A DNA stretch of 64,000 bases. Origin: Minisyncoccota bacterium (GTDB lineage: Bacteria; Patescibacteriota; Minisyncoccia; Phycocordibacterales; DAORIS01). Both the position numbers and the translations under genes were made by a program. Below are positions 9,586 to 57,668 of this stretch, piece after piece. Position 1 is the stretch's first letter. Each line of letters begins with the position of its first letter. The stretch spans positions 34,832-98,831 of the forward strand of contig DAORIS010000002.1 in assembly GCA_035438625.1 (NCBI GenBank), written 5' to 3'. Below the pieces are notes generated by a model. The model was given only the letters and a program-made list of their open reading frames with translations, was not told the DNA's origin and ran no database searches.

Positions 9586-10500
9586 ATGGCTGCTAGGAAC
9601 AAAATTGAGACAGTCGACGAGTACGGAATCTGGCGCCCTGGCTGCTTTACAGCCAAAGGTATCTACTTCGGCGGAGCAACCAAACGCTTCTTCTCACAAC
9701 TCGACCCTCATGGTAATTCATGTACTCCGCAACGAATACGTGCCCTCATGCGGGAAAACTGCGGTGTCATTCCTTATTCATCAAGTGATCTGAAAGGATT
9801 TCTTCGGGAATTTACATACAAGTTGAGGGGTGATGCAAGCGCAGCTCACAGCTATGTAAAAACGGAACTAAAACATACGTCACACTCACTGATACTTGAT
9901 GAACGGTATTTCAAGCTAAGAACAAGTGATCAGTGTCAAAAATCAAAAGCAAAAGACGCGCTTCTAACCCGACTTTCAGGTGTTGCAATGATCATTAGCG
10001 CATCAGATTGCACACCAGTTGCCATATACGATCCAGTACATCACGTTGCAGCTTTGGTGCACTCCGGGCGGACAGGCACCGCAAAGCGCATTGCAGCAAG
10101 AGTCATTCGTCTCATGGAGGACAACTTCAACACAAGTCCCGCTGATGTAGTTGTCTCCATCGGACCGTCAGTATCACATAGTGCGTACGATTTTTTAACC
10201 AAAACATACCGGGAGTTTGTAATCGAGAACCATTATACCGACAACGATCTTGGACGCTTCAGAATTAATCGGGGTAACGGATCGTATGGACTCGACATTC
10301 CAGCAGCAATCCGGTTCCAACTAGAACAAATCGGTGTTCAACCTGAAAAAATTTACCGGTCAGACCTTACAACGACCGAAAACACCGATTTGTTTTGCTC
10401 AGCATCTGCAGCACCGGGTAATAACCCTGAAGAGCGTGTCGCAAACAGCGGAAGTAACGTGTACATGCTCATTCTTGAAGACCCACTCACTGACTTATAA
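9586..10500 (+). CDS. YfiH/PgeF-family (DUF152, laccase-domain) protein with an N-terminal extension
   Basis: ASDCTPV and HSGRTGT boxes correspond to the conserved ADCxPV and HAGWRG motifs of PgeF. The gene is noticeably more GC-rich than its neighbours. Confidence 0.55.
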   Translation: MAARNKIETVDEYGIWRPGCFTAKGIYFGGATKRFFSQLDPHGNSCTPQRIRALMRENCGVIPYSSSDLKGFLREFTYKLRGDASAAHSYVKTELKHTSHSLILDERYFKLRTSDQCQKSKAKDALLTRLSGVAMIISASDCTPVAIYDPVHHVAALVHSGRTGTAKRIAARVIRLMEDNFNTSPADVVVSIGPSVSHSAYDFLTKTYREFVIENHYTDNDLGRFRINRGNGSYGLDIPAAIRFQLEQIGVQPEKIYRSDLTTTENTDLFCSASAAPGNNPEERVANSGSNVYMLILEDPLTDL

Positions 10501-18863: not shown

Positions 18864-20702
18864 CTAATCCCCTCCCTTCACCATCTTAATGAAGACATCT
18901 TGAGGAATATTCACCGTTCCTCTCTCCTTCATTTTCTTCTTTCCTTTCTTCTGTTTTTCGAGAAGTTTCATCTTTCGTGTAATGTCACCTCCATAAAGGT
19001 ATCCGGTAACATCCTTTCGCATGGCTGAGACGCTCTCTGAGGCGATAATTCGGCCCTGGGCCTTTGCTTGAATCTTCATAGCAAACATTTGTCGTGGAAG
19101 CACAGATTGGAGCTTCTCGACGGCTTTTCGGGCTTCAAGCTCCAGGCGTTTTCGTGAGACTACACGTGCAAAAGCAACCACTGGTTCGTCAGCAACAAGT
19201 ATGTCCATTCGAACAACATCGGCACTTCTCATCTCACCCATTTCATACGAGATAGAAGCATATCCTGATGTGAGACTTTTAATCTCATCAAAAAAATTTC
19301 GCATCATTTCTCGAAGTGGCAACTTTGCTTCAATCGCAGTTCGCTCTGTTCCAAAAAGATCAGTGTTTCCAACTTCTGCTTCATGTTCGTATAACACTTG
19401 TACCAAGCTTCCAACATATTCAGGAGGAGTGATGAGTTTAATGTTCACCCATGGTTCTCGAACCGATGTTATTAATGAATCTTCTGGAAAGAATATTGGT
19501 GAATATACTTTTTCAGTTTTTCCGTTTTTCATGGTCACTTCGTATGTGATAGATGGAGTTGTAACAATAAGTGAAAGTGAAAATTCCCGCTTTAAGCGTT
19601 CAGTGATAATTTCCAAATGAAGCATTCCGAGGAATCCGCAACGGAATCCGCGACCAAGGGCACCCGATGATTCTTCTTCAAATGAAAGTGCCGAGTCAGA
19701 TAGCTGCAAACGTTCAAGCGCCTGTCGAAGCAACGGAAAATCGTCTTGGCTTTCAGGATAAAGTGATGCCCACACAACTGGAAGTGCTGATTGATATCCA
19801 GGTAGTGCTTGTACTGGCTTCTTATCCAAGAAAATCGTGTCTCCAACAGAAGCAATTCCTGGCTCCTTGATTCCAGTTACAATGTATCCAATCATTCCGT
19901 TAGACAAACTATCAACTGGAGTTTCTTGTGGGGCAAACGTTCCTGTTTCAGTAGATTTGAATCGTGCATTTGAAACTGAGAATCGGCACTCGTCTCCTTT
20001 TTTAAACTCACCTCCGAATACTCGAACATACACAATAACTCCGCGGTGGTCTGAATATTGAAAATCAAAAATAAGTGCCCGAGGTCGGTCTTCTTGTGGA
20101 AATCCTTGATGATCAGTTACAACTTCTTTTGCTTCTTTTCTTTCAAATGGAGAAGGAATTCTTGCAACGATTGCCTGAATGAGTTCTTCTACTCCCTGTC
20201 CTGTCTTTCCAGAGACCTCCATAATTGTGTCTTCCTCCACACCTAAAAGTTCGGCCACTTCTTTTTTAACTCGTGGAATGTCAGCGTATGGAGAATCAAT
20301 CTTACTTACTGCGGGAATAATCACATGACCTAGCGTTCGTGCCATCGCAAGTGTTGTTAGTGTCTGCGCTTGCACACCTTGTGTCGCATCAACCAAAAGC
20401 ACTGACCCTTCTACTGCGGTTAGCGCACGTGATACTTCGTATGAAAAATCAATGTGTCCAGGAGTATCAATCAGGTGAAGCATAAAATCAACGCCATTGC
20501 GAGAATATTTCATGCGCACTGGCTGCATCTTAATGGTGATACCGCGTTCACGTTCCAGATCCATTGAGTCCAATACCTGGTCCTTCATTTTTCTTGCCTC
20601 AATTGTATGGGTCATCTCCAACATGCGGTCAGCAAGCGTGGACTTACCATGGTCAATATGGGCAATAATTGTAAAGTTTCTGATCTGCTTAGACTGGTTC
20701 AT
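18864..20702 (-). CDS. lepA: Elongation factor 4 (LepA)
   Basis: IRNFTIIAHIDHGKST G1 motif, DTPGH box, LepA-specific C-terminal domain. Confidence 0.95.
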   Translation of the reverse strand: MNQSKQIRNFTIIAHIDHGKSTLADRMLEMTHTIEARKMKDQVLDSMDLERERGITIKMQPVRMKYSRNGVDFMLHLIDTPGHIDFSYEVSRALTAVEGSVLLVDATQGVQAQTLTTLAMARTLGHVIIPAVSKIDSPYADIPRVKKEVAELLGVEEDTIMEVSGKTGQGVEELIQAIVARIPSPFERKEAKEVVTDHQGFPQEDRPRALIFDFQYSDHRGVIVYVRVFGGEFKKGDECRFSVSNARFKSTETGTFAPQETPVDSLSNGMIGYIVTGIKEPGIASVGDTIFLDKKPVQALPGYQSALPVVWASLYPESQDDFPLLRQALERLQLSDSALSFEEESSGALGRGFRCGFLGMLHLEIITERLKREFSLSLIVTTPSITYEVTMKNGKTEKVYSPIFFPEDSLITSVREPWVNIKLITPPEYVGSLVQVLYEHEAEVGNTDLFGTERTAIEAKLPLREMMRNFFDEIKSLTSGYASISYEMGEMRSADVVRMDILVADEPVVAFARVVSRKRLELEARKAVEKLQSVLPRQMFAMKIQAKAQGRIIASESVSAMRKDVTGYLYGGDITRKMKLLEKQKKGKKKMKERGTVNIPQDVFIKMVKGGD

Positions 20703-24821: not shown

Positions 24822-24835
24822 GTGGAGAGCTGTGG
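24801..24835 (-). terminator. Intrinsic terminator of rnpB
   Basis: On the minus strand, CACAGCUCUCCACAUGGGGAGCUGUG followed by UUUUUUU. Confidence 0.7.
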
Positions 24836-25203
24836 TGCACTGTAAGCCGAATTCTGTTCTAAGAGGTATTGCTACGTACTTAGAGATATATATATGTCTG
24901 GAGAATAGATCGCTCTATCCTTCTTGCGTCTCTCTATGCTCTTGCGCCTCGTACGAGACGTCGCAAGAACACAGCACGGACTTGCACTCAGGCAAGGATT
25001 TAGCCGTTTCATTCCCTTATTCAGTATTAGGGATTCACCCACAAGTGGGTGCCTCTGGCTTTCACCTCGGGCGTCACTGCTCGCACCTCGCGGATTACTC
25101 CGTGCAGGGGTTACCTGCTGCCTTTCTCCAGGCGGACCTGGGAGTGTTCGGACTTTCCTCACGATGTAGAAAATCTATATCGCGCATATACCCGTGCACA
25201 TAT
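24836..25203 (-). ncRNA. rnpB: RNase P RNA (bacterial type A-like)
   Basis: The minus strand carries the P4 signatures AGGAAAGUCCG (5' strand) and ACAGAAUUCGGCUUA (3' strand) about 300 nt apart. The region is GC-rich with no credible ORF, and a GUGCAC P1 pairing closes the ends. A terminator follows. Confidence 0.75.
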
Positions 25204-25230: not shown

Positions 25231-26982
25231 TCAATACTTACGGTGTACCCTCTTTTTTGGTGCTAATGGGAGTGCCCCGCCGGCAACAATCATTGATCCG
25301 ATGATAATCATGAGGTACATAAGAGCCATGTCTCGTGGTGTTCGTGTTTGTCCAAAGGCAGCGAAAGTGGAAGCGCCAGCACCTGAGCGGATAAGATTAT
25401 CTTCTAAGAAATCTTCTGTTTCAGCGATCCAGGGAAAAGTCTCCCAGGGAAGCAGGCCGTTTGGAGTCCATCCACTGTCCCAAATAACAATACCATCCAC
25501 ATTAAGCGCTTTTAACGTATCAAGTTGTAGTCGATAAAAATCAAGTGGTAACTGTTGTAGCGCCAATCCTCCCGCTGTCGATTCATGATACCTTGGCCAA
25601 ATAAATGGATACACCGGTTTACCATATCGCTCTGCAATAGCAACTGTATACTCGGCGTAATACAACCAATCTTGTTGACTATTGTTTGACGTATATAGAG
25701 ATGGAAAAATATAATCTACCGCATTTGCAATTGGTGCAAGAAAATCACTTGCAGCAACAACCGCTTCGTACGCTGCAGTAAATTGTGCAGCTTGAGAAAC
25801 CGCCCACGCATCACCATCTTGGAGTAATCCATAGTTAACAGCGTGCGTAAGCTCTGACAAAGGGATAATAGAGTAAATACCGACCTTTAAATCAGGTCGC
25901 TCGTCTCGTATCCACCCAATAACTCGCAAATATTTTTCTGTTGAACTTGCTACAGCCACCTCACTATGAAAGTTAATGTTTGCAGGCCAACTTTCGATAT
26001 CAGGAACAGCTACAGCATTTAACGGGACTGTTTGTGCCCACGCACGAGTTGCAACTTCACTTGGCTCACCCGGGTTAGTTGCAGACGCATTATCAAAGAA
26101 ATATCCTCCCCAACCTACATAAATCGGATTTACTGCTGCACTAAAGATTGTTGGTTTATCGGTATACCCACCTATCGCATCAAATATTTTAAATATAGTG
26201 TTGTAAACAGGATCTGGAGGAGCATTGTCGTTTGAATTATTTCGACCTCCACCACCTCCACCTCCACTCCTTCTACGCTTAACTGTAGTTGTCGCCGTAG
26301 AATTTGTTCCCGTGTTTTTTGCAAGCGTTTGATTAACTAAAGTTGCATAGGCAAGATTTAATGCCGATCTTGTTTGTGGTCCAATTGATCCAACTGGTTC
26401 AAGTCCTTTCGATAGCTGAAAACTTGCTACCGCCTGAGCGGTGATAGGGCCAAAAAATCCTGTTGGCGGTTCAGTCATAAAACCAAGCGCAACAAGCAAT
26501 TCCTGAAGAGCCGTTACCTCAGCACCCCGAGCTCCAATTGTTTGTGGAAGAGTAAATGTAAATGAAGGAATTATTGTTGTGCTGGTTGTAGCTGGACTAG
26601 TAGGAAGAACATTCTGTGGTGCTCCACACACAAACAATCTAGTTAGAGGACCAAAAAATCCAGTTGCAGGAGTTATATTGACTGCCATTTGAAAATTTTT
26701 CAAAGCTTGCTGGGTCTTAAGTCCAAACGATGTAGTCTCTTGTCCAGGAGAACCGAGACCGGTTTGAGAAATGACATAGCCGTTGGCATTTAAGAATTGT
26801 TGGAGTGCGCGGACATCTTCACCTTCTGAATCAACCCTTAAATCACGAGTATAGATACAGGTTGTGTTTGTTTGAGCATTACTTTCTTTGAAAATAAATG
26901 CATCGTGCGTTAGCGATAGCCCAAAAATCAATCCGCTAATAGTTACATAACACACCAATCTCAAAAACTTAAAATTATTCAT
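25231..26982 (-). CDS. Secreted protein with two peptidoglycan-binding (PG_binding_1-like) domains, a Gly-rich linker, a TIM-barrel-like glycoside-hydrolase domain and a C-terminal TM anchor
   Basis: Signal peptide. Two copies of the VRALQQFLNANGY...GLKTQQALKNFQ-type PG-binding repeat. A GGGGGGGR linker. A C-terminal domain of about 300 aa with a VDGIVIWDSGW box. The final hydrophobic segment is followed by KKRVHRKY. Confidence 0.5.
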   Translation of the reverse strand: MNNFKFLRLVCYVTISGLIFGLSLTHDAFIFKESNAQTNTTCIYTRDLRVDSEGEDVRALQQFLNANGYVISQTGLGSPGQETTSFGLKTQQALKNFQMAVNITPATGFFGPLTRLFVCGAPQNVLPTSPATTSTTIIPSFTFTLPQTIGARGAEVTALQELLVALGFMTEPPTGFFGPITAQAVASFQLSKGLEPVGSIGPQTRSALNLAYATLVNQTLAKNTGTNSTATTTVKRRRSGGGGGGGRNNSNDNAPPDPVYNTIFKIFDAIGGYTDKPTIFSAAVNPIYVGWGGYFFDNASATNPGEPSEVATRAWAQTVPLNAVAVPDIESWPANINFHSEVAVASSTEKYLRVIGWIRDERPDLKVGIYSIIPLSELTHAVNYGLLQDGDAWAVSQAAQFTAAYEAVVAASDFLAPIANAVDYIFPSLYTSNNSQQDWLYYAEYTVAIAERYGKPVYPFIWPRYHESTAGGLALQQLPLDFYRLQLDTLKALNVDGIVIWDSGWTPNGLLPWETFPWIAETEDFLEDNLIRSGAGASTFAAFGQTRTPRDMALMYLMIIIGSMIVAGGALPLAPKKRVHRKY

Positions 26983-29900
26983 TTGTTTCTTCTGCTACTG
27001 ACTGATTTTCTGCCTCTCCTGAGTCATTGCTTTGTGGAGACCTATTTGAGTCTACTTGCACCTCTTCAGTTATTTCTGTTGATACTTCTATAGATTCAAG
27101 TATATCCTCTTTTTCAACGTGCGATCCACCCACAACCTGTTCTTCACTGATGGGATCAATTGGGAGTGGAATTGGAGTAGGTGCCGGACCTGGATCGTCT
27201 ATTGGTTTAGCCCCACACTCTAATTCAGTCGTTGTCATTTTTCCATTTTTAATCTTCACACAATATGGCTCTCCTGTTACTTCATCGTATAACGTAATAC
27301 CTGTTGGGTTTTCTTGAGAGCCCACAGTAAACGTCTCGACAACTAATTTCTTTAAGGAAGTGAGGGTGTTCGCCATAAAACTTTCATATGAAATCGTTTC
27401 TAGTTGCTCATTGATTGTCTTAACTTTCAGGTCTAATTCTTGGATAGAGTTAATAATAAATGGAGTGAGATTTCCATACGCAACTGATTTATATCCAGTT
27501 TTTGAATCAGTTGAGACAAGCTCTGGGAATATCTTTTCTACTTCTTGAGCAATCAATCCAAACCGCTTTGTATCATCAGACTGAGAATTCCATTGGAATG
27601 AAACCGGGCGAAGTGCTGTGATACGTTCAAGTGATGTTAGTGGATCAATTGAAGCCACGTCTTTCTTTAATCGTTCGTCGGAAGTACATGTCCACGTTGT
27701 TGATGTTGGGTTGATTTCACAATACCCGTTTGTATCTTCAAATCGAACGGGAGCATCATCACTTGAAACATATACATGAAGTTTCTTTGCAGGAGAGGTT
27801 GTACCGATTCCTAGGGAACCAGCTGCAGTTATATTTAAGAGAGTATTCGAGGAACTATCTTGAATTTGAAAAAGATCAGCACTTTGTGCCGCAACACCTC
27901 TGATTATAATACCAATTCTACTATTCGTACTTGGAACAAATGTAACATTCCCAACTCCATTTCGAATATTTCCTCGTAGATCTGCATCTGGGCTAACAAC
28001 AAATGAAGTACCACTAACAAGAAAACTATACGCAGACCCGGTATTGATGTTGGTATTAAAAAACAAAGTTCCACTACTTCTTATGTCGTTGGTAATCAAC
28101 CTAGTATTTGCAGTAACTATGTCACCACTAATATTACCTCCTACAGTAAGAAGCGAGCCTGGTGTCGTAGTGCCAATTCCAACGTTCCCACTAACAATCA
28201 GTCCATTACTTGGCGCAGCGGTTACACCACCATATGTACCAATAGACACCCCTCCAACAACATCCAATGCTGACTTAGGAAAACCGGTCTTGAGACCGAG
28301 ACGAATGTCCATTCGATCGTTGTCGTTTACCCATAACACTGACCCAGTACTCGTCGATGAAGCACCGTATGGAAACATATGAATATACTGACCACTTGCA
28401 ATCGTTGTACCATTTCCATATCCTGTACCCAAAATACGGTTTGCGGTTCCATTTACAGCAACCTGAAGCCCGTATCCAGTATCAATTGCAATATCTCCTT
28501 GTAACACATTGAATCGAGAAGGATAAGTACCTCTGCTGGTAGTTCCAACTGCAACACGCACATCTCCCGCCACAGTATCGCTACCTGAGATTGTAATACC
28601 TCTACTAGTTGCACTTGTTCCACCCGGAACGACCAATGTTGCATACCAACCGTATGGAATAATTGTTCCGTCACCATATCCTGCCGTAAGATTCGTGCCT
28701 GTCACGGTACCCCCGAATGATCCGCTACTTGAAACCGTTAATGCTCCAGTTTGTGAAACGGTAAGTAAAGAGGTGCCTGTTGATGACGCAACCACTAACG
28801 GATTAGAGCCCGCTGATCCAACAATTGACAGCTTGGCGATTGGCGAAGTAGAACCAATACCGACGTTTCCTACAGAAGTTATTCTTAATTTTTCTCCTAT
28901 GGTATTTGAACCCCTTGTAGAAAAGGCCAGGTAAGAATCATTAGTTGATGCAGCTTCCCAAGCACCAGTCACCAGTCCAGTAGTAAAATTACTTCCTGCT
29001 GACCAACCGTAAAAACCAAGTGATGATCCTACGTTTGCTGCCGCTACCGCATTATTAGTTATTCCTAGTGCAGGTGCAATACCTGAGGAAGTTGTAGCTA
29101 TTGTTAAAGTAAATTGTGGAGAAGTTGTTCCAATCCCGACATTACCACTACTTCCTTGGAATCTCAGATACGGTGTACCACCCACTGTTGTTACAAAATC
29201 AACATTTCCACCTGTTGATCCATTACGTCCAGTAAAAAATTCAATATTTCCTGAATTGGTTGTTACATCCTGAGAAAATTTAATGTGAGCATTGTAGTAA
29301 GAGTTTTGAGCATAAAATTTTATAAACGATGAACTGTTATATGTAGGCTGTCCAAATCGGATATTTCCATTGTAAATATCAAATTTTTCCGCTGGAGTCG
29401 TTGTGCCAATTCCAATACTTCCGGACGCATTAATTACCGTAAGTGCCGTGCCAGCAGAATTTTGCCATTCTTGTAAAGTAGAACTTTGATTTGAAGCACC
29501 ACGAATAATTAATCCTTTAGTTGTGCTTGCTGTTGCTGTTACATGAAGTTGTGCCAATGGACTTGAGTTACCGATACCAACTAATCCTGAACGATCAATT
29601 ATTAACCGAGTAGTTGGGTTATATGTTGAGCCTGGCGTTAGTTCAGAATCAGTTCGTAGCTGTACATATCCATTATTAAAAAATAAATCTGATGCATATG
29701 TTGCTCGAGCAACAAATCCTGAAGAGTTATACTCTCCACCTTGCATTACAAGACCAATAGAATCACCTCCTGCACCAAGAAACATTCCCCCTCCCAAAGT
29801 GTTCGAACCATTGAAAAAACGAACACTGGTATAGCCTCCACCATCCACAGTAAGTGTATGTGTTGGTGTGTTAGTCCCCACCCCAACATTTCCACTCGCC

Positions 29901-30586
29901 CTCCAGACATCAGTTCCATTCGATGCCCAGTTTCCAACGGCAGCACCAGCTAGGAGGTTTCCTGCCCAGTACAAATTACCCCCATCGTTATAGAGAGAGT
30001 TTGAGGTATCAGAAGGGGGAGTAATTTCCGCAAGGACAACATACTGTGCCAAAGAGAGTAGCCCTGCAATTGATGAAGTAGCGGTGTCCGTAACTGAAAG
30101 CGCACGAGAGAAGTCAATGGCACCTATGTCATCTTGAAGGTCTGAGATGTCCCCATTGACATCACTGAACCGATCAGCCATATCTTCACGAAATGAATCG
30201 ATGCGCTTGTTCACACGATCAAGAGAGACATTCGGTTGAGCTCGGAGGAGTTCTCTCATACGAACATCGATTTGAGCAATCACTTCTTCACGGGTGATCC
30301 CTGGTACTGTCACTTCACGGATGGTTTGGACAGTGTGGGTATCATAGACATATTCTGTTGATCCCTGAGGATACACAATGATAGGGGCAGTTTGTGGAGT
30401 TGCAACGTATGCAAAAGACGACGGCCCTTTCATTTCACATGAACCGAGGGTGGTGCAGTATATTCCACCAATATAATTTCCAAATGAAAATGCACGTAAT
30501 TTTTCAACCGGAACCGCAGAAAGGAAGATAGTTGATACAGCTATTAATCCAAAGAAAAAAGCCGTAATTCGGAAGTACGATTTCAC
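26975..30586 (-). CDS. Giant (1203 aa) secreted tail-fibre-like surface protein with a C-terminal intramolecular-chaperone autoproteolytic domain (Peptidase_S74-like)
   Basis: Signal peptide. Seven dispersed G-N-V-G-I-G-T-x-x-P repeats (GNVGVGTNTP, GLVGIGNSSP, GSIGIGTTTP, GNVGIGTTSP, GNVGIGSTSP, GNVGIGTTTP, GSLGIGTTSP). A C-terminal SDERLKKDV...GLIAQEVEKIFPELV...YGNLTPFIINSIQEL block matches the self-cleaving chaperone of phage tail spikes and fibres. Confidence 0.6.
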   Translation of the reverse strand: MKSYFRITAFFFGLIAVSTIFLSAVPVEKLRAFSFGNYIGGIYCTTLGSCEMKGPSSFAYVATPQTAPIIVYPQGSTEYVYDTHTVQTIREVTVPGITREEVIAQIDVRMRELLRAQPNVSLDRVNKRIDSFREDMADRFSDVNGDISDLQDDIGAIDFSRALSVTDTATSSIAGLLSLAQYVVLAEITPPSDTSNSLYNDGGNLYWAGNLLAGAAVGNWASNGTDVWRASGNVGVGTNTPTHTLTVDGGGYTSVRFFNGSNTLGGGMFLGAGGDSIGLVMQGGEYNSSGFVARATYASDLFFNNGYVQLRTDSELTPGSTYNPTTRLIIDRSGLVGIGNSSPLAQLHVTATASTTKGLIIRGASNQSSTLQEWQNSAGTALTVINASGSIGIGTTTPAEKFDIYNGNIRFGQPTYNSSSFIKFYAQNSYYNAHIKFSQDVTTNSGNIEFFTGRNGSTGGNVDFVTTVGGTPYLRFQGSSGNVGIGTTSPQFTLTIATTSSGIAPALGITNNAVAAANVGSSLGFYGWSAGSNFTTGLVTGAWEAASTNDSYLAFSTRGSNTIGEKLRITSVGNVGIGSTSPIAKLSIVGSAGSNPLVVASSTGTSLLTVSQTGALTVSSSGSFGGTVTGTNLTAGYGDGTIIPYGWYATLVVPGGTSATSRGITISGSDTVAGDVRVAVGTTSRGTYPSRFNVLQGDIAIDTGYGLQVAVNGTANRILGTGYGNGTTIASGQYIHMFPYGASSTSTGSVLWVNDNDRMDIRLGLKTGFPKSALDVVGGVSIGTYGGVTAAPSNGLIVSGNVGIGTTTPGSLLTVGGNISGDIVTANTRLITNDIRSSGTLFFNTNINTGSAYSFLVSGTSFVVSPDADLRGNIRNGVGNVTFVPSTNSRIGIIIRGVAAQSADLFQIQDSSSNTLLNITAAGSLGIGTTSPAKKLHVYVSSDDAPVRFEDTNGYCEINPTSTTWTCTSDERLKKDVASIDPLTSLERITALRPVSFQWNSQSDDTKRFGLIAQEVEKIFPELVSTDSKTGYKSVAYGNLTPFIINSIQELDLKVKTINEQLETISYESFMANTLTSLKKLVVETFTVGSQENPTGITLYDEVTGEPYCVKIKNGKMTTTELECGAKPIDDPGPAPTPIPLPIDPISEEQVVGGSHVEKEDILESIEVSTEITEEVQVDSNRSPQSNDSGEAENQSVAEETNE

Positions 30587-34478: not shown

Positions 34479-34563
34479 CATATCCCTGAGTATCCCAAGA
34501 AAATGCCTTAAATACAAGGTTTTTGAGGTATTTTTACGTCATTGTTTATATAAATCGTAAATA

Positions 34564-34592
34564 TTGACAATACTAGTCATATATGCTATAAT
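34564..34592 (+). promoter_or_regulatory. Perfect consensus sigma-70 promoter (TTGACA-17 nt-TATAAT)
   Basis: Exact match to both hexamers with optimal spacing. GGAG lies 7 nt before the ATG at 34687. Confidence 0.7.
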
Positions 34593-34686
34593 ATACATAA
34601 TCCTACGTAAAGGCATAAGTTTGCCTATACAGGTACGGGATACGGAGTTGGTACGCATGATGTGTATCAAACAAATGGAGTTCGTT

Positions 34687-35340
34687 ATGATCCGTCGTTC
34701 TTTGTCACTGTTTGCAGTTACCTTCGCTTTGATCGTTTGCGTAAGTCAGGTGGCTTCTGCGGCATTTGTGAATCAGTCGTACCATCTGCCCAGCATCGGC
34801 CACATCTACACATGGGGTGAAAACCATTCAACCAGTGAAACCACCCTCAGTCTCGACCTTCAATCTCCGGAATACGAGGTGCGAAGTACGGGATCAAGTG
34901 TGCAGTTTACCAATGATGGACAAGGGTACGTATTCCTGTCAATCGGCGCAATCAAGCGCGATTCGGGAGTTCGTAACCTCTCCAACATGAACTCGAACAG
35001 CAATGTTGTCTTTGATGACGTGGTGCTTTACAGCTACGCATCAACCGGCCACTACCTCGACGAGCACACCGGCGCCAAGATGAGCACCGGAAACGCATTC
35101 ATTGAAATGTCGCCGTTCATTGCCACCTGGTCTGATTTTCAGCTCAGTTCGCACTACGATGACGTTGACGCTGCACGCTATCTCTGGCTCAGTCTCTCGG
35201 CCCGTATCGAGTACATCGGTACGAACCCAGACACCATCGCAATGCTCGACGGTTTCAGCACCATGAGCATGGTGCCCGAACCGAGCTCGCTCGGCCTTCT
35301 CGGCGGCATGGTGATTTCCACCTTACGTCGTAAGCGCTGA
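34687..35340 (+). CDS. PEP-CTERM sorting-domain surface protein
   Basis: Signal peptide (MIRRSLSLFAVTFALIVCVSQVASA). C-terminal VPEP, a hydrophobic helix (SSLGLLGGMVIS) and RRKR. The gene is clearly more GC-rich than the surrounding DNA. Confidence 0.6.
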   Translation: MIRRSLSLFAVTFALIVCVSQVASAAFVNQSYHLPSIGHIYTWGENHSTSETTLSLDLQSPEYEVRSTGSSVQFTNDGQGYVFLSIGAIKRDSGVRNLSNMNSNSNVVFDDVVLYSYASTGHYLDEHTGAKMSTGNAFIEMSPFIATWSDFQLSSHYDDVDAARYLWLSLSARIEYIGTNPDTIAMLDGFSTMSMVPEPSSLGLLGGMVISTLRRKR

Positions 35341-35355
35341 AAACTACAAACAGTG

Positions 35356-35386
35356 AAAACCCACCTAAGACGTGGGTTTTCTTTTT
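35356..35386 (+). terminator. Rho-independent terminator after the PEP-CTERM gene
   Basis: AAAACCCAC-ctaagac-GTGGGTTTT followed by CTTTTT. Confidence 0.75.
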
Positions 35387-35395
35387 GCCAAAAAA

Positions 35396-55180: not shown

Positions 55181-55948
55181 ATGCGGACAAATTTAATGCT
55201 ACTGGCTGGAAGAGGGAAAAGATTTGCAGACGCAGGTTATAGTATTCCCAAACCCCTAATTCCTGTAAACGGCCTTCCTATGGTCATTTCTGCTGTTCAC
55301 AGCATGCCAAAGGCGGATAAGTTAATCTTTGTTGTTTCAGGTGATTATGTTAATAACCACGACATAACAAACCTCCTACTTTCATATTTCCCCGAGGCAC
55401 AAATTATTGTCCAAACAAGTCCGCTACAAGGACAAGCCCATAGTGCACTTGAGGCTGTTGATGCCATCGATCCAGAATCAGTGCTTACAATTGCAAGTTG
55501 TGACGCAGGTCCAACATACGATATGAATAAGTTTGAAAGCGACCTGCTTTCTGAAGATCAAGATGCACTTATATGGTCATTTAGACACTATCCTCCAATG
55601 CAGACACAACCAAGTGCCTATGGATGGATTGATGCAGACGAGCAAGGTCTAGTAAAAAAGGTACAGTACAAAGTTCCACTTTCTGACCACCCCCTTGAAG
55701 ACCATGCTGTTGTTGGGTGGTTTAGCTACAGAAAAGCAAAGACCTGTTTTGACAATGTAAAGGAAATGATTGAAAAGAACCTAAAGAGCGGCGTTGAATT
55801 TTCACTTGATGAATGCACCAACGTATTGGTAAAAAACAATCACAAAGTTAAGGTTTTTGAAATCGACACATTCCTTTCATGGGGAACCCCTATTGAATTA
55901 AAGACATATGAATACTGGCAGCGATACTTCGAAACAAAGAAAAAATAG
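55181..55948 (+). CDS. Second LicC-like nucleotidyltransferase (tandem paralogue)
   Basis: LAGRGKRF...KPLIPV signature, and the same length as the preceding gene. Confidence 0.6.
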   Translation: MRTNLMLLAGRGKRFADAGYSIPKPLIPVNGLPMVISAVHSMPKADKLIFVVSGDYVNNHDITNLLLSYFPEAQIIVQTSPLQGQAHSALEAVDAIDPESVLTIASCDAGPTYDMNKFESDLLSEDQDALIWSFRHYPPMQTQPSAYGWIDADEQGLVKKVQYKVPLSDHPLEDHAVVGWFSYRKAKTCFDNVKEMIEKNLKSGVEFSLDECTNVLVKNNHKVKVFEIDTFLSWGTPIELKTYEYWQRYFETKKK

Positions 55949-57668
55949 AGTCAGCGTACTTGTTTTACTTTTCATCACCGTCCTAGCAGCAAGCTGGGTA
56001 TGGCATATCACTTCTAGAAATTATCACTTCCAAGAAGTGGACTCTTCAGGGACCTATAACATCCTATACGAATTTCCTGGGTCAACATTACGCTTTATTG
56101 CACTTCTCTATCCTCACGGTAGTTTTATTTCAACAAGTACAGCTGAAAAAATTCTTTCGCACGATTCAATTCGTTCGATTAAAAACACATACCTTTCATC
56201 TTTTAGTGATGAATTTCTCATTAATCAACTAACACAAGCATCACTACTAAGTACATTTAGGTACGGTCTAACACAAGCAATTTCTTCCGCTCCTTTGCCT
56301 TTTGCAGTACAGAGTTTTTTCTCAATGGGAATTGGATCAACATACTCACCAGGTGCTGGTTTTGTGTATGGATTGGTTTCCGGACCAAACGCAGATTATT
56401 TGACGTTTATGTCTCGATCAATGGTCGTATCCATTACACTATTTCATGTATCTGTTTTACTACTATTTCTCATTAACAGAAAACTTGGAGTTTCAGATGG
56501 TGTAAATTCGCTTGTATGTTTTCTCATGTTGTTCTCGATAAGTATCTACTCGTCTGGAATTCATGTTGGTAGTACTGTGTGGAATTTCACAACAGAATTC
56601 TTGTGGTTATACTTTCTAGTCACCTATTACAAACACCCTGAGATACACCGACATATTGCTTGGTTAACAGGAGTATTGATCTTTTTCAATTACCTCATTT
56701 TACTGTTTTGGCTTGCCTTCATGTTCATTCGATTATTTGAATGGTGGAAACAGACACAGTCTCGTTCACTTAAAAAGTTTGGTGTATGGTTTTGGGGAAC
56801 AATAAAATCACAACTTCCAGCAATTATATTAATTGGTACAGCTACAATTCTTTTCTTCCTTCCAGGTCAAGGTTTTAGAGGATCTGCAACATTTGCAACG
56901 CTTCCTTCTGATGTCTATTACACCGTACTTAACTTCTTTAGTTGGTACACACACTCAGCACCATTCAATCTTTTACAGTACAGCATGGGTGTATTACTAC
57001 TCGCCTCATCACTATTGTTTTTCATTCCCAAACAAACAGAAGGGTCCGTTCATTCATTAGTTAAACAAATCTGTCTTCTCGTACTTGCTCTATATATAGT
57101 ATTAGCAATCCTCCACACCCTAAGTTTTGCTCCAACACGCCATATCCTTTTCCTTATACCAATACTATTTATCTCCATTGCACAGGGATTATCTATCCTC
57201 TCGAAAAAAACTGGGATTCATATACCTACATACGTATCAGTTTCAGCGCTTACCATCCTCTCTGTACTTGGTATGTATTGTGTATTCCTGCGTGGGTTTG
57301 ATACTGCCGACCGAACGGTGTTTCTAAACACCACTGATCCTGAAGTGTCTACAATTGGAATACACGATGGCTCGTATGATATTTATTACAAGTATGCAGA
57401 GAACAAGACTCCGGTGACGTTCATGCATCCTAAAATATTTGAAGCAGGTAAGACGTATTTGTATGTCAGCCCTTCTGTCGCATTTGAAACTCAGATGCGG
57501 GAATGGAGAAAAGAGCACGATATGGAAATAGAAATCTTGTATGATGCAAGGGAGATAACGGACGCATATTTCATCGCTCACAATCCAAATTTTGAGCGAT
57601 TCCGTTACAGTCGCCCCAACAACCTATACCAAACAAAATTTACCGTTCGATCAGTATCAAAAAAATAA
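55908..57668 (+). CDS. Large polytopic membrane protein (GtrC/GT-C-like candidate glycosyltransferase or polymerase)
   Basis: 586 aa with more than 10 TM helices and no soluble catalytic motif. It lies directly upstream of a DPM-synthase-like GT2 and near gtrA. Confidence 0.45.
   Translation: MNTGSDTSKQRKNRVSVLVLLFITVLAASWVWHITSRNYHFQEVDSSGTYNILYEFPGSTLRFIALLYPHGSFISTSTAEKILSHDSIRSIKNTYLSSFSDEFLINQLTQASLLSTFRYGLTQAISSAPLPFAVQSFFSMGIGSTYSPGAGFVYGLVSGPNADYLTFMSRSMVVSITLFHVSVLLLFLINRKLGVSDGVNSLVCFLMLFSISIYSSGIHVGSTVWNFTTEFLWLYFLVTYYKHPEIHRHIAWLTGVLIFFNYLILLFWLAFMFIRLFEWWKQTQSRSLKKFGVWFWGTIKSQLPAIILIGTATILFFLPGQGFRGSATFATLPSDVYYTVLNFFSWYTHSAPFNLLQYSMGVLLLASSLLFFIPKQTEGSVHSLVKQICLLVLALYIVLAILHTLSFAPTRHILFLIPILFISIAQGLSILSKKTGIHIPTYVSVSALTILSVLGMYCVFLRGFDTADRTVFLNTTDPEVSTIGIHDGSYDIYYKYAENKTPVTFMHPKIFEAGKTYLYVSPSVAFETQMREWRKEHDMEIEILYDAREITDAYFIAHNPNFERFRYSRPNNLYQTKFTVRSVSKK

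Follow-up and report, generated by a model that had tools for sequence, protein, structure and literature searches.

How a bacterium from a minimal-genome lineage comes to carry a gene whose product ends in a PEP-CTERM sorting signal, and whether such a gene is a recent arrival, is the question raised by one locus in a 64-kb stretch of DNA from a Minisyncoccota bacterium (the window: the whole stretch analysed, whose numbering is used for all positions unless a related locus is named). As first defined, PEP-CTERM/exosortase sorting belongs to outer-membrane producers of exopolysaccharide (EPS), and Patescibacteria are generally regarded as having no outer membrane. Here, we focus on a gene between MYG1 and obg that encodes a secreted protein, P0001; its relatives are termed P0002 and P0003, and related loci carry L-numbers. 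An earlier reading of the letters alone (the sequence-only reading) saw a GC-rich gene behind a textbook promoter in a minimal-genome host, and took its composition as a sign of recent acquisition. Its premise about the host holds, because the best matches of the window Obg among 185,579 species genomes are metagenome-assembled genomes (MAGs) of Paceibacteria/Parcubacteria, at 64% identity or less. On the origin of the gene, the evidence leads elsewhere: we think it rather probable that the locus is an old, one-gene, allele-exchanging cassette that encodes a hypervariable surface protein, made at a high level and bearing a tail that works in sorting or anchoring.

The cassette interrupts an arrangement that is otherwise conserved. 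Among 107 related loci with both genes, MYG1 lies upstream of obg in the same orientation, with a gap of at most 200 nt in 94 of them; in the nearest lineage without the cassette, whose MYG1 is 59% identical, just 9 nt lie between the two. In the window they are 914 nt apart and the gene between them faces the opposite way, so a conserved operon of iPGM, AI-2E permease, MYG1, obg and gatB was split. An exhaustive HMMER search of 1.84 billion protein representatives returned two true relatives (37% and 34% identical), both in the MYG1-obg gap, making a family of three protein clusters; a profile search added nothing and a word-indexed search returned only the query itself, while the other HMMER matches were rejected as spurious, RCC1-like hits ("GHLYTWG"). 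P0003 is encoded on a 52-kb contig in the order MurJ, TPR (tetratricopeptide repeat), PG-binding, DAO, GatB, Obg, the cassette gene, MYG1. P0002 is encoded on a contig of 1,446 bp (L005), between fragments of Obg (81%) and MYG1 (69%), in a cassette made up of TTGACA-16-TGcTATAAT, a GTG start codon preceded by GGAGTTC, and a hairpin terminator. The fourth assembly is L171, which stops 168 nt past MYG1 (its positions 9978-10145) and holds a P0003-type tail and terminator. The cassette is common to at least three diverged lineages in the same slot: third positions of Obg are 0.44 identical between the window and L005, and seven neighbouring proteins of the window share 77-97% identity with those of L171, with their synonymous positions 55-62% identical. 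A metagenome scan with Obg brought up relatives of at most 61% identity; neither the source contig nor the P0003 contig was among them, and it yielded no extra cassette DNA. The abrupt change in GC content, limited to one gene, is what would be expected if a GC-rich fragment had been joined into a contig of the candidate phyla radiation (CPR) by chimeric assembly or contamination, but the arrangement recurs in four independent samples/assemblies (3300014059, 3300071358, 3300064042 and 3300049196), and its junctions lie in the AT-rich promoter and terminator, which are conserved and run on without a break into obg and MYG1; we give such an artefact next to no chance.

The second line of evidence is the contrast between the ends of the protein and its middle. 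P0001 and P0003 are 60% identical in the signal peptide, 63% in the tail and 25% in the ectodomain, and the corresponding values for P0001 and P0002 are 48%, 48% and 36%. Over the same segment of MYG1, the window is 89% identical to L171, the P0003-type host, and 69% identical to L005. The likeness of the ectodomains contradicts the relatedness of the hosts, since ectodomain identity is lowest (25%) between the closest hosts (89%) and reaches 36% with the more distant host (69%). Aligned as DNA, the window and L171 agree at about 97% of positions across the stop codon, the 3′ untranslated region (UTR) and the terminator, loop included, whereas synonymous sites nearby are about 60% identical. 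Identity is about 80% in the tail, and directly upstream of VPEP the two cannot be aligned. Assemblies break at or near this boundary: L171 ends where allele similarity stops, and the very short L005 contig runs out in obg on one side and in MYG1 on the other. The Logan assembly of SRR1145916, from the same or a twin sample, contains other regions of the genome but no record of the protein. This pattern suggests that several alleles coexist in populations, and it fits old alleles that may have been exchanged, or kept by diversifying selection, as at surface-antigen loci. With its ends conserved, its exposed domain divergent and the differences discordant with host relatedness, the locus behaves like a variable surface-antigen or adhesin locus, at which old alleles would be swapped by recombination through the conserved ends. 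Known variable surface loci, such as those of flagellin and type IV pilin, offer a close parallel in their conserved signal peptide, tail, promoter and terminator around a middle that here is 25-36% identical, in alleles discordant with hosts and in assembly breaks at the boundary (L171 and L005); unlike those systems, the cassette protein shares no sequence or fold relationship with them, and recombination is read from the pattern of similarity. An episymbiont is likely, judging from these sequences, to use the product as a variable adhesin or coat protein.

The composition of the gene, from which a recent arrival had been deduced, is indeed exceptional. Measured against the 53 other open reading frames (ORFs) of the window, it ranks first both in GC content (0.528 against a mean of 0.416; z 4.4) and in GC content at third codon positions (GC3; 0.633 against 0.345; z 6.3), and the log-likelihood of its synonymous codons under window usage is below that of every other gene (z -4.4). 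First and second positions (GC1 and GC2) are ordinary, and the flanks are AT-rich, at 34% GC in the promoter and leader and 36% in the 3′ region. C occupies 41% of third positions in the window gene and 58% in the second allele, against 18% in the genome; NNC is preferred over NNT in every two-fold pyrimidine pair, CTC, TCG, GGC and ACC are favoured, and the G-ending codons TCG, GCG and CCG are enriched too. The L005 cassette gene goes further, with 60% GC and a GC3 of 0.85 between obg and MYG1 fragments at 0.33-0.36.

Recent transfer from a GC-rich, Gram-negative EPS producer, leaving a tag that is orphaned, non-functional or decaying for want of an exosortase, would explain why the gene is an outlier in GC3 and codon usage, why its codon choice resembles that of high-GC genomes, and why the site is empty in most of some hundred relatives. 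The MYG1-obg junction also holds other inserts elsewhere, some of them GC-rich and one with a transposase, and an exosortase was not found in the 82 kb searched. Set against this, lineages that differ at 40-56% of synonymous sites hold this cassette at an identical position, and the more remote lineage has the greatest GC3; first and second codon positions have the composition of host genes, the control regions (promoter, leader and terminator) are conserved and rich in AT, and VPEP and the basic cluster are invariant. A search for a donor lineage found no homologue outside the slot among the 1.84 billion representatives, and no GC-rich organism carries one; nor were terminal repeats, target duplications, an integrase, mobility genes or a tRNA found at the cassette site. 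Of the traits of a horizontally acquired islet, the compositional anomaly and the site that is empty elsewhere stand, whereas restriction to one lineage, a donor homologue and signatures of mobility do not. We regard recent transfer as improbable. The cassette has had its GC3-rich codons for a long time, and they do not mark a recent arrival; a strong GC3 anomaly that can outlast speciation is no timestamp of transfer.

The junction itself is a recurrent insertion slot in Paceibacteria: besides L005, 12 of the 107 loci have gaps of more than 200 nt that hold unrelated small genes. Among these inserts are a 297-aa GC-rich gene (GC3 0.73 against 0.53) behind a perfect TTGACA-16-TATAAT promoter in L156 (8952-9903), a 410-aa ORF resembling a DDE-type transposase in L164/L162 (7946-9912) and a four-helix-bundle protein in L124; gaps upstream of obg also occur in L158, L055, L128/L050, L080, L081 and L045.

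If neutral drift had acted, the GC3 excess should have gone in a gene that predates the splits between hosts; it has been kept in two or three lineages. The excess could be due to synonymous-site selection in a gene expressed at a very high level, to GC-biased gene conversion where alleles recombine, or to alleles being replaced time and again from an unsampled pool. An explanation in which the excess reflects nothing but translational or mRNA-level selection for NNC codons on the most highly expressed gene, with no foreign origin, accords with an excess that is confined to third positions, dominated by C and uniform across the two-fold pairs, and that persists in two lineages despite synonymous saturation in the hosts; a few other Paceibacteria genes with perfect promoters also have raised GC3. 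General translational selection is argued against, since enolase, FtsZ, SecA and HSP20 of the window have ordinary GC3 (0.30-0.40), and its effect across the genome looks weak. The enrichment of TCG, GCG and CCG does not suit a preference for NNC, and the related loci examined contain no ribosomal-protein or EF-Tu genes with which codon bias could be compared. Perfect-consensus promoters number 19 in 2.2 Mb of Paceibacteria DNA, including those of the cassette and its L005 copy, and most of the 17 others precede genes of ordinary GC3 (z near 0-2). Expression-driven selection as the whole cause is possible, though on the unlikely side. Raised GC3 behind such promoters was clearest for small genes in L020/L097 (3409-3801, minus strand; 0.54 against 0.40, z 5.7) and in L052 (6577-6885, minus strand; 0.82 against 0.56, z 4.8), which hints at a wider link of strong promoters with GC3-rich small genes in the class Paceibacteria.

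The third line of evidence concerns the tail, which consists of V196-P-E-P, 14 hydrophobic residues and RRKR at the C-terminus, followed by the stop codon. Together with the N-terminal signal peptide, a tripartite tail of this kind at the extreme C-terminus is present in P0001, which passes the NCBIfam model TIGR02595 at 18.7 bits (cutoff 16); P0003 scores 21.1 bits and P0002 is not reported at E≤1. The NCBI entry HRH26063.1, a 227-aa version from a Candidatus Paceibacterota MAG, is already named PEP-CTERM sorting domain-containing protein, in agreement with the sequence-only reading. V196, P197, E198, P199, S201, L202, L205, L213, R214, R215 and K216 are invariant in the three alleles, while other helix residues vary. 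With VPEP..SL..L..LRRK unchanged across alleles, the tail has the pattern to be expected if a sorting motif is recognised and not if it decays, so that the decayed or nonfunctional tag that had been put forward as the alternative is unlikely; the invariance of VPEP..SL argues that the tail may still be read by a processing enzyme.

An unrelated secreted Paceibacteria protein of 237 aa, encoded in L096 (18258-18971, minus strand), has a PEP-CTERM-like tail (VVPEPKAFWLLASGLLVIGYAVRRKNG...; PF07589 17.8) and is one further example in about 2.2 Mb of related Paceibacteria loci. It gives weak, tail-only matches to several PEP-CTERM families of NCBIfam; its gene adjoins a type IV pilin gene (19073-19645, minus strand) and has the highest GC content of its locus (0.55).

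A number of observations weigh against a hypervariable surface protein with a working tail. Expression, export and surface location are read from sequence features, and P0003-type DNA was compared over its last 40 codons (L171); conserved ends could, moreover, simply reflect an absence of diversifying selection there. An AlphaFold2 model of the ectodomain, built from three sequences, has 10-11 beta strands and is of low confidence (mean pLDDT, the predicted local distance difference test, 56.8; pTM, the predicted template modelling score, 0.52), with no significant fold match in the PDB, and no family in Pfam, NCBIfam or PHROG covers this domain. PF07589 remains below its gathering score of 20.7 in all alleles (16.1 for P0001; 14.6 and 18.8 for the others). 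A scan of the window for C-terminal patterns found one PEP-CTERM instance, whereas genomes with the system usually hold many; PEP-CTERM was defined by co-occurrence with EpsH, usually in many copies (with a median of 8 paralogues per genome) and only in outer-membrane bacteria, and PF07589 picked up no more than 22% of the matches to TIGR02595 in that founding study (Haft et al. 2006, PMC1569441). Finally, precomputed Pfam annotation of all called genes over 82 kb (record positions 4748-87025 of the 112,933-bp contig) revealed no exosortase, sortase or candidate processing enzyme, which extends to most of the contig the earlier remark that the window has no exosortase; these 82 kb amount to roughly a tenth of a typical CPR genome. 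No match to the sortase family PF04203 appears in the gene tables of this region, and Pfam and NCBIfam scans of its proteins that have several transmembrane (TM) segments or no annotation likewise found no exosortase, resolving them as MscS, an RnfD-like reductase, MurJ, a TPR membrane protein and one 586-aa orphan. In about 2.2 Mb of related Paceibacteria loci, no exosortase, sortase or other candidate enzyme was present among the 20 of 28 multi-TM cluster representatives scanned against Pfam, 15 of which belong to other families and 5 of which have no match.

The 586-aa orphan (55908-57668, plus strand), with about nine TM segments, was considered as a hidden exosortase and rejected: it has no Pfam or NCBIfam match at E≤0.1, and exosortase-like motifs are absent by eye. 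It lies in a polysaccharide-biosynthesis cluster, and a near-identical copy of the same length and position occurs in the Logan contig of SRR1145916.

It could be asked whether the tail merely resembles PEP-CTERM and simply anchors the C-terminus in the only membrane of a cell whose genome has no dedicated sorting enzyme. The absence of exosortase and sortase from the 82 kb, the single instance and the marginal scores for a 24-residue model (18.7 against 16, with Pfam below cutoff) are in keeping with an anchor only; the original description itself cautions that single matches and LPXTG-type tails score near the PEP-CTERM threshold, at a time when the species known to have PEP-CTERM all had outer membranes (PMC1569441), and a literature search found no paper joining exosortases or PEP-CTERM with CPR taxa, bar one mention in a reference list. 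A plain anchor, however, needs no motif of the kind that is kept here, with VPEP and SL invariant while helix residues vary and ectodomains are 25-36% identical; the unrelated L096 protein has the same type of tail, and the enzyme could be encoded in the roughly nine-tenths of the genome outside the DNA examined. We place the anchor-only protein somewhat below an even chance. The surface-protein cassette that we favour leaves room for either fate of the tail. The most likely of these, held at about even chances and by analogy with known substrates, is that an enzyme of exosortase/archaeosortase type encoded elsewhere would cleave the tail near PEP, and the protein would then be attached to lipid or a surface glycan, as are ArtA substrates; the alternative fate would be that of a plain membrane anchor. 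A polysaccharide-biosynthesis cluster at 45-64 kb of the window, 10 kb from the cassette, is a possible source of a glycan acceptor.

Comparison with known systems shows both similarities and differences. In kind the product is already known, as a PEP-CTERM-tailed secreted protein; what is unusual is the host in which it occurs, its extreme variability and a GC3 anomaly that persists. Like substrates of the exosortases EpsH and XrtA, it has a signal peptide, a novel ectodomain and an end composed of P-E-P, a helix and Arg/Lys residues that passes TIGR02595, and polysaccharide-biosynthesis genes lie on the same contig. Unlike them, it belongs to a Patescibacterium with, as generally held, no outer membrane, is a single instance and not one of a paralogous set, has no exosortase in the DNA examined and falls below the gathering score of PF07589; its gene is hypervariable between close relatives and an outlier in codon usage. 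In the archaeosortase A/PGF-CTERM system, the Haloferax S-layer glycoprotein is an abundant surface protein of a single-membrane cell that is cut at a C-terminal tripartite signal and anchored to lipid. Should there be a sorting enzyme, this would be the closest functional parallel, namely a signal of the exosortase family in a single-membrane cell, although the cassette motif is VPEP and not PGF, the host is bacterial and no archaeosortase-type gene was found. The LPXTG/sortase system has the same layout of motif, helix and basic tail in a single-membrane, peptidoglycan-bearing host, whereas the cassette motif is V-P-E-P-[S/T/A] in all alleles, with no Thr-Gly and no LPXTG-like pentapeptide, and PF04203 is missing from the 82 kb examined. 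PepA-type floc-forming proteins of Zoogloea and other activated-sludge bacteria are also small secreted PEP-CTERM proteins; the similarity is limited to the tail, and the window protein does not match NF033554, which the unrelated L096 protein matches weakly and in its tail only.

Taken as a surface-protein cassette, the locus would date back to the ancestor of a small clade, or to a gene pool that its members shared, where a self-contained, one-gene unit entered the MYG1-obg gap in reverse orientation. Its signals predict high expression, which would be driven by a consensus sigma-70 promoter with an extended -10 element, a GGAG Shine-Dalgarno sequence and a strong terminator. The product (MIRRSLSLFAVTFALIVCVSQVASA, cleavage, AF..., about 170 residues, end ...MVPEPSSLGLLGGMVISTLRRKR) would be exported by Sec, and its signal peptide would probably be removed after ASA; a signal peptidase I (PF10502) is encoded on the same contig. 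The all-beta domain of about 170 aa would then be displayed outside the single membrane, with the C-terminal helix holding it and RRKR inside. A more far-reaching proposal, which we consider doubtful, is that a single-membrane CPR clade uses a genuine PEP-CTERM signal, through an unrecognised sorting enzyme or independently of exosortase, on a hyper-expressed protein of antigenic variation, with old, deeply diverged alleles swapped between lineages at a genomic hot spot and GC3 actively kept by selection or GC-biased gene conversion. If a selected PEP-CTERM tail in Patescibacteria were borne out, this type of sorting would extend to single-membrane, minimal-genome episymbionts, and one would predict either an exosortase-type enzyme that has escaped notice or a novel role for the signal. 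The cassette product is a candidate major variable surface protein and bears on host attachment and phage evasion in CPR bacteria.

The features of the cassette are listed in table 1. The sequence-only reading had placed the feature at 34564-35340, of which the end stands; 34564 is the TTG within the -35 box and not a start codon, and the coding sequence begins at ATG 34687. Its promoter and Shine-Dalgarno sequence are both present as described. The promoter consists of an exact TTGACA, a 17-nt spacer with TG-C at its end and TATAAT, and is the sole 12/12 match in 10 kb scanned; with spacers of 16-18 nt, it is the one exact pair in the 64-kb window, where 0.04 would be expected. GGAG sits 6 nt upstream of the ATG, and the leader has no family match in Rfam, even at E≤1. 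The start codon is given differently by the NCBI Prokaryotic Genome Annotation Pipeline (PGAP; 227 aa, from ATG 34657) and by the Joint Genome Institute (JGI), whose gene call is the same 217-aa product (3300014059 Ga0119868_1000023). The downstream start is supported, because L005 has GGAGTTC without the upstream ATG; the "ME" that precedes MIRR and is conserved in P0001 and P0003 is the Shine-Dalgarno sequence itself (ATGGAG), and the contig index has no entry for the 227-aa start of PGAP.

Table 1. Coordinates of the cassette and adjoining elements in the window.
Feature	Position	Strand	Remarks
-35 hexamer TTGACA	34564-34569	+	kept in L005
Extended -10 element TG-C-TATAAT	34584-34592 (TATAAT 34587-34592)	+	identical ATATGCTATAAT in L005
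5′ leader, about 88 nt (predicted start site), with GGAG Shine-Dalgarno 34677-34680	34599-34686	+	GGAGTTC kept in L005
Coding sequence, 217 aa and stop; secreted protein with PEP-CTERM tail	34687-35340	+	orthologues P0002, P0003
Signal peptide MIRRSLSLFAVTFALIVCVSQVASA, predicted signal peptidase I cleavage after A-S-A (MIRR...VASA then A)	34687-34761	+	translation read by eye
Hypervariable all-beta ectodomain, about 170 aa, rich in Ser/Thr/Gly/Asn/Tyr	34762-35271	+	AlphaFold2 model, low confidence
PEP-CTERM-type tail: VPEP, SSLGLLGGMVISTL (membrane helix), RRKR	35272-35337	+	TIGR02595 and motif invariance
Intrinsic terminator: 10-bp stem, 7-nt loop, T-run	35355-35387 (hairpin 35355-35381, then TTTTT)	+	back-to-back with MYG1 stop 35396
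Conserved AT-rich spacer adjoining obg start codon (34481)	34482-34563	-	blocks common to L005: AGTATC.CAAGAAAA, ATACAAGGT
5′ arm of long-range complementarity, codons 6-15	34702-34729	+	pairs with 35332-35359
3′ arm of complementarity: last codons and 3′ UTR to terminator stem	35332-35359	+	pairs with 34702-34729

On the minus strand, a promoter-like site matching 9/12 positions (TTGTCA 34570-34565, 18 nt, AACAAT 34546-34541) is a candidate promoter that probably feeds obg-gatB since the operon was split. The -35 box lies within a near-palindrome, ATTGACAAT (34541-34570), which is also found in L005.

The codons of the signal peptide are complementary to the stretch before the terminator over 28 nt (79%; -27.8 kcal/mol), a value reached by none of 200 shuffles. 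The equivalent pairing in L005 (its positions 431-445 and 1132-1146) has a different sequence, spans 15 nt at 93% and is not better than shuffles. Such complementarity could represent pairing between the 5′ and 3′ ends of the mRNA, or inverted repeats that bracket the variable segment. A T-to-C change in the 3′ UTR of L171 could match the F-V-A codons of P0003.

Elsewhere in the window, a 1203-aa Peptidase_S74 (intramolecular chaperone) protein lies beside a 583-aa PG_binding_1 protein (25231-30586, minus strand); the latter ends in a hydrophobic helix and KKRVHRKY, and has the form of a C-terminally anchored surface protein with no recognisable sorting motif. At 24827-25200 on the minus strand is a bacterial RNase P class A RNA, a divergent RNA that scores 103 bits against a gathering score of 100.

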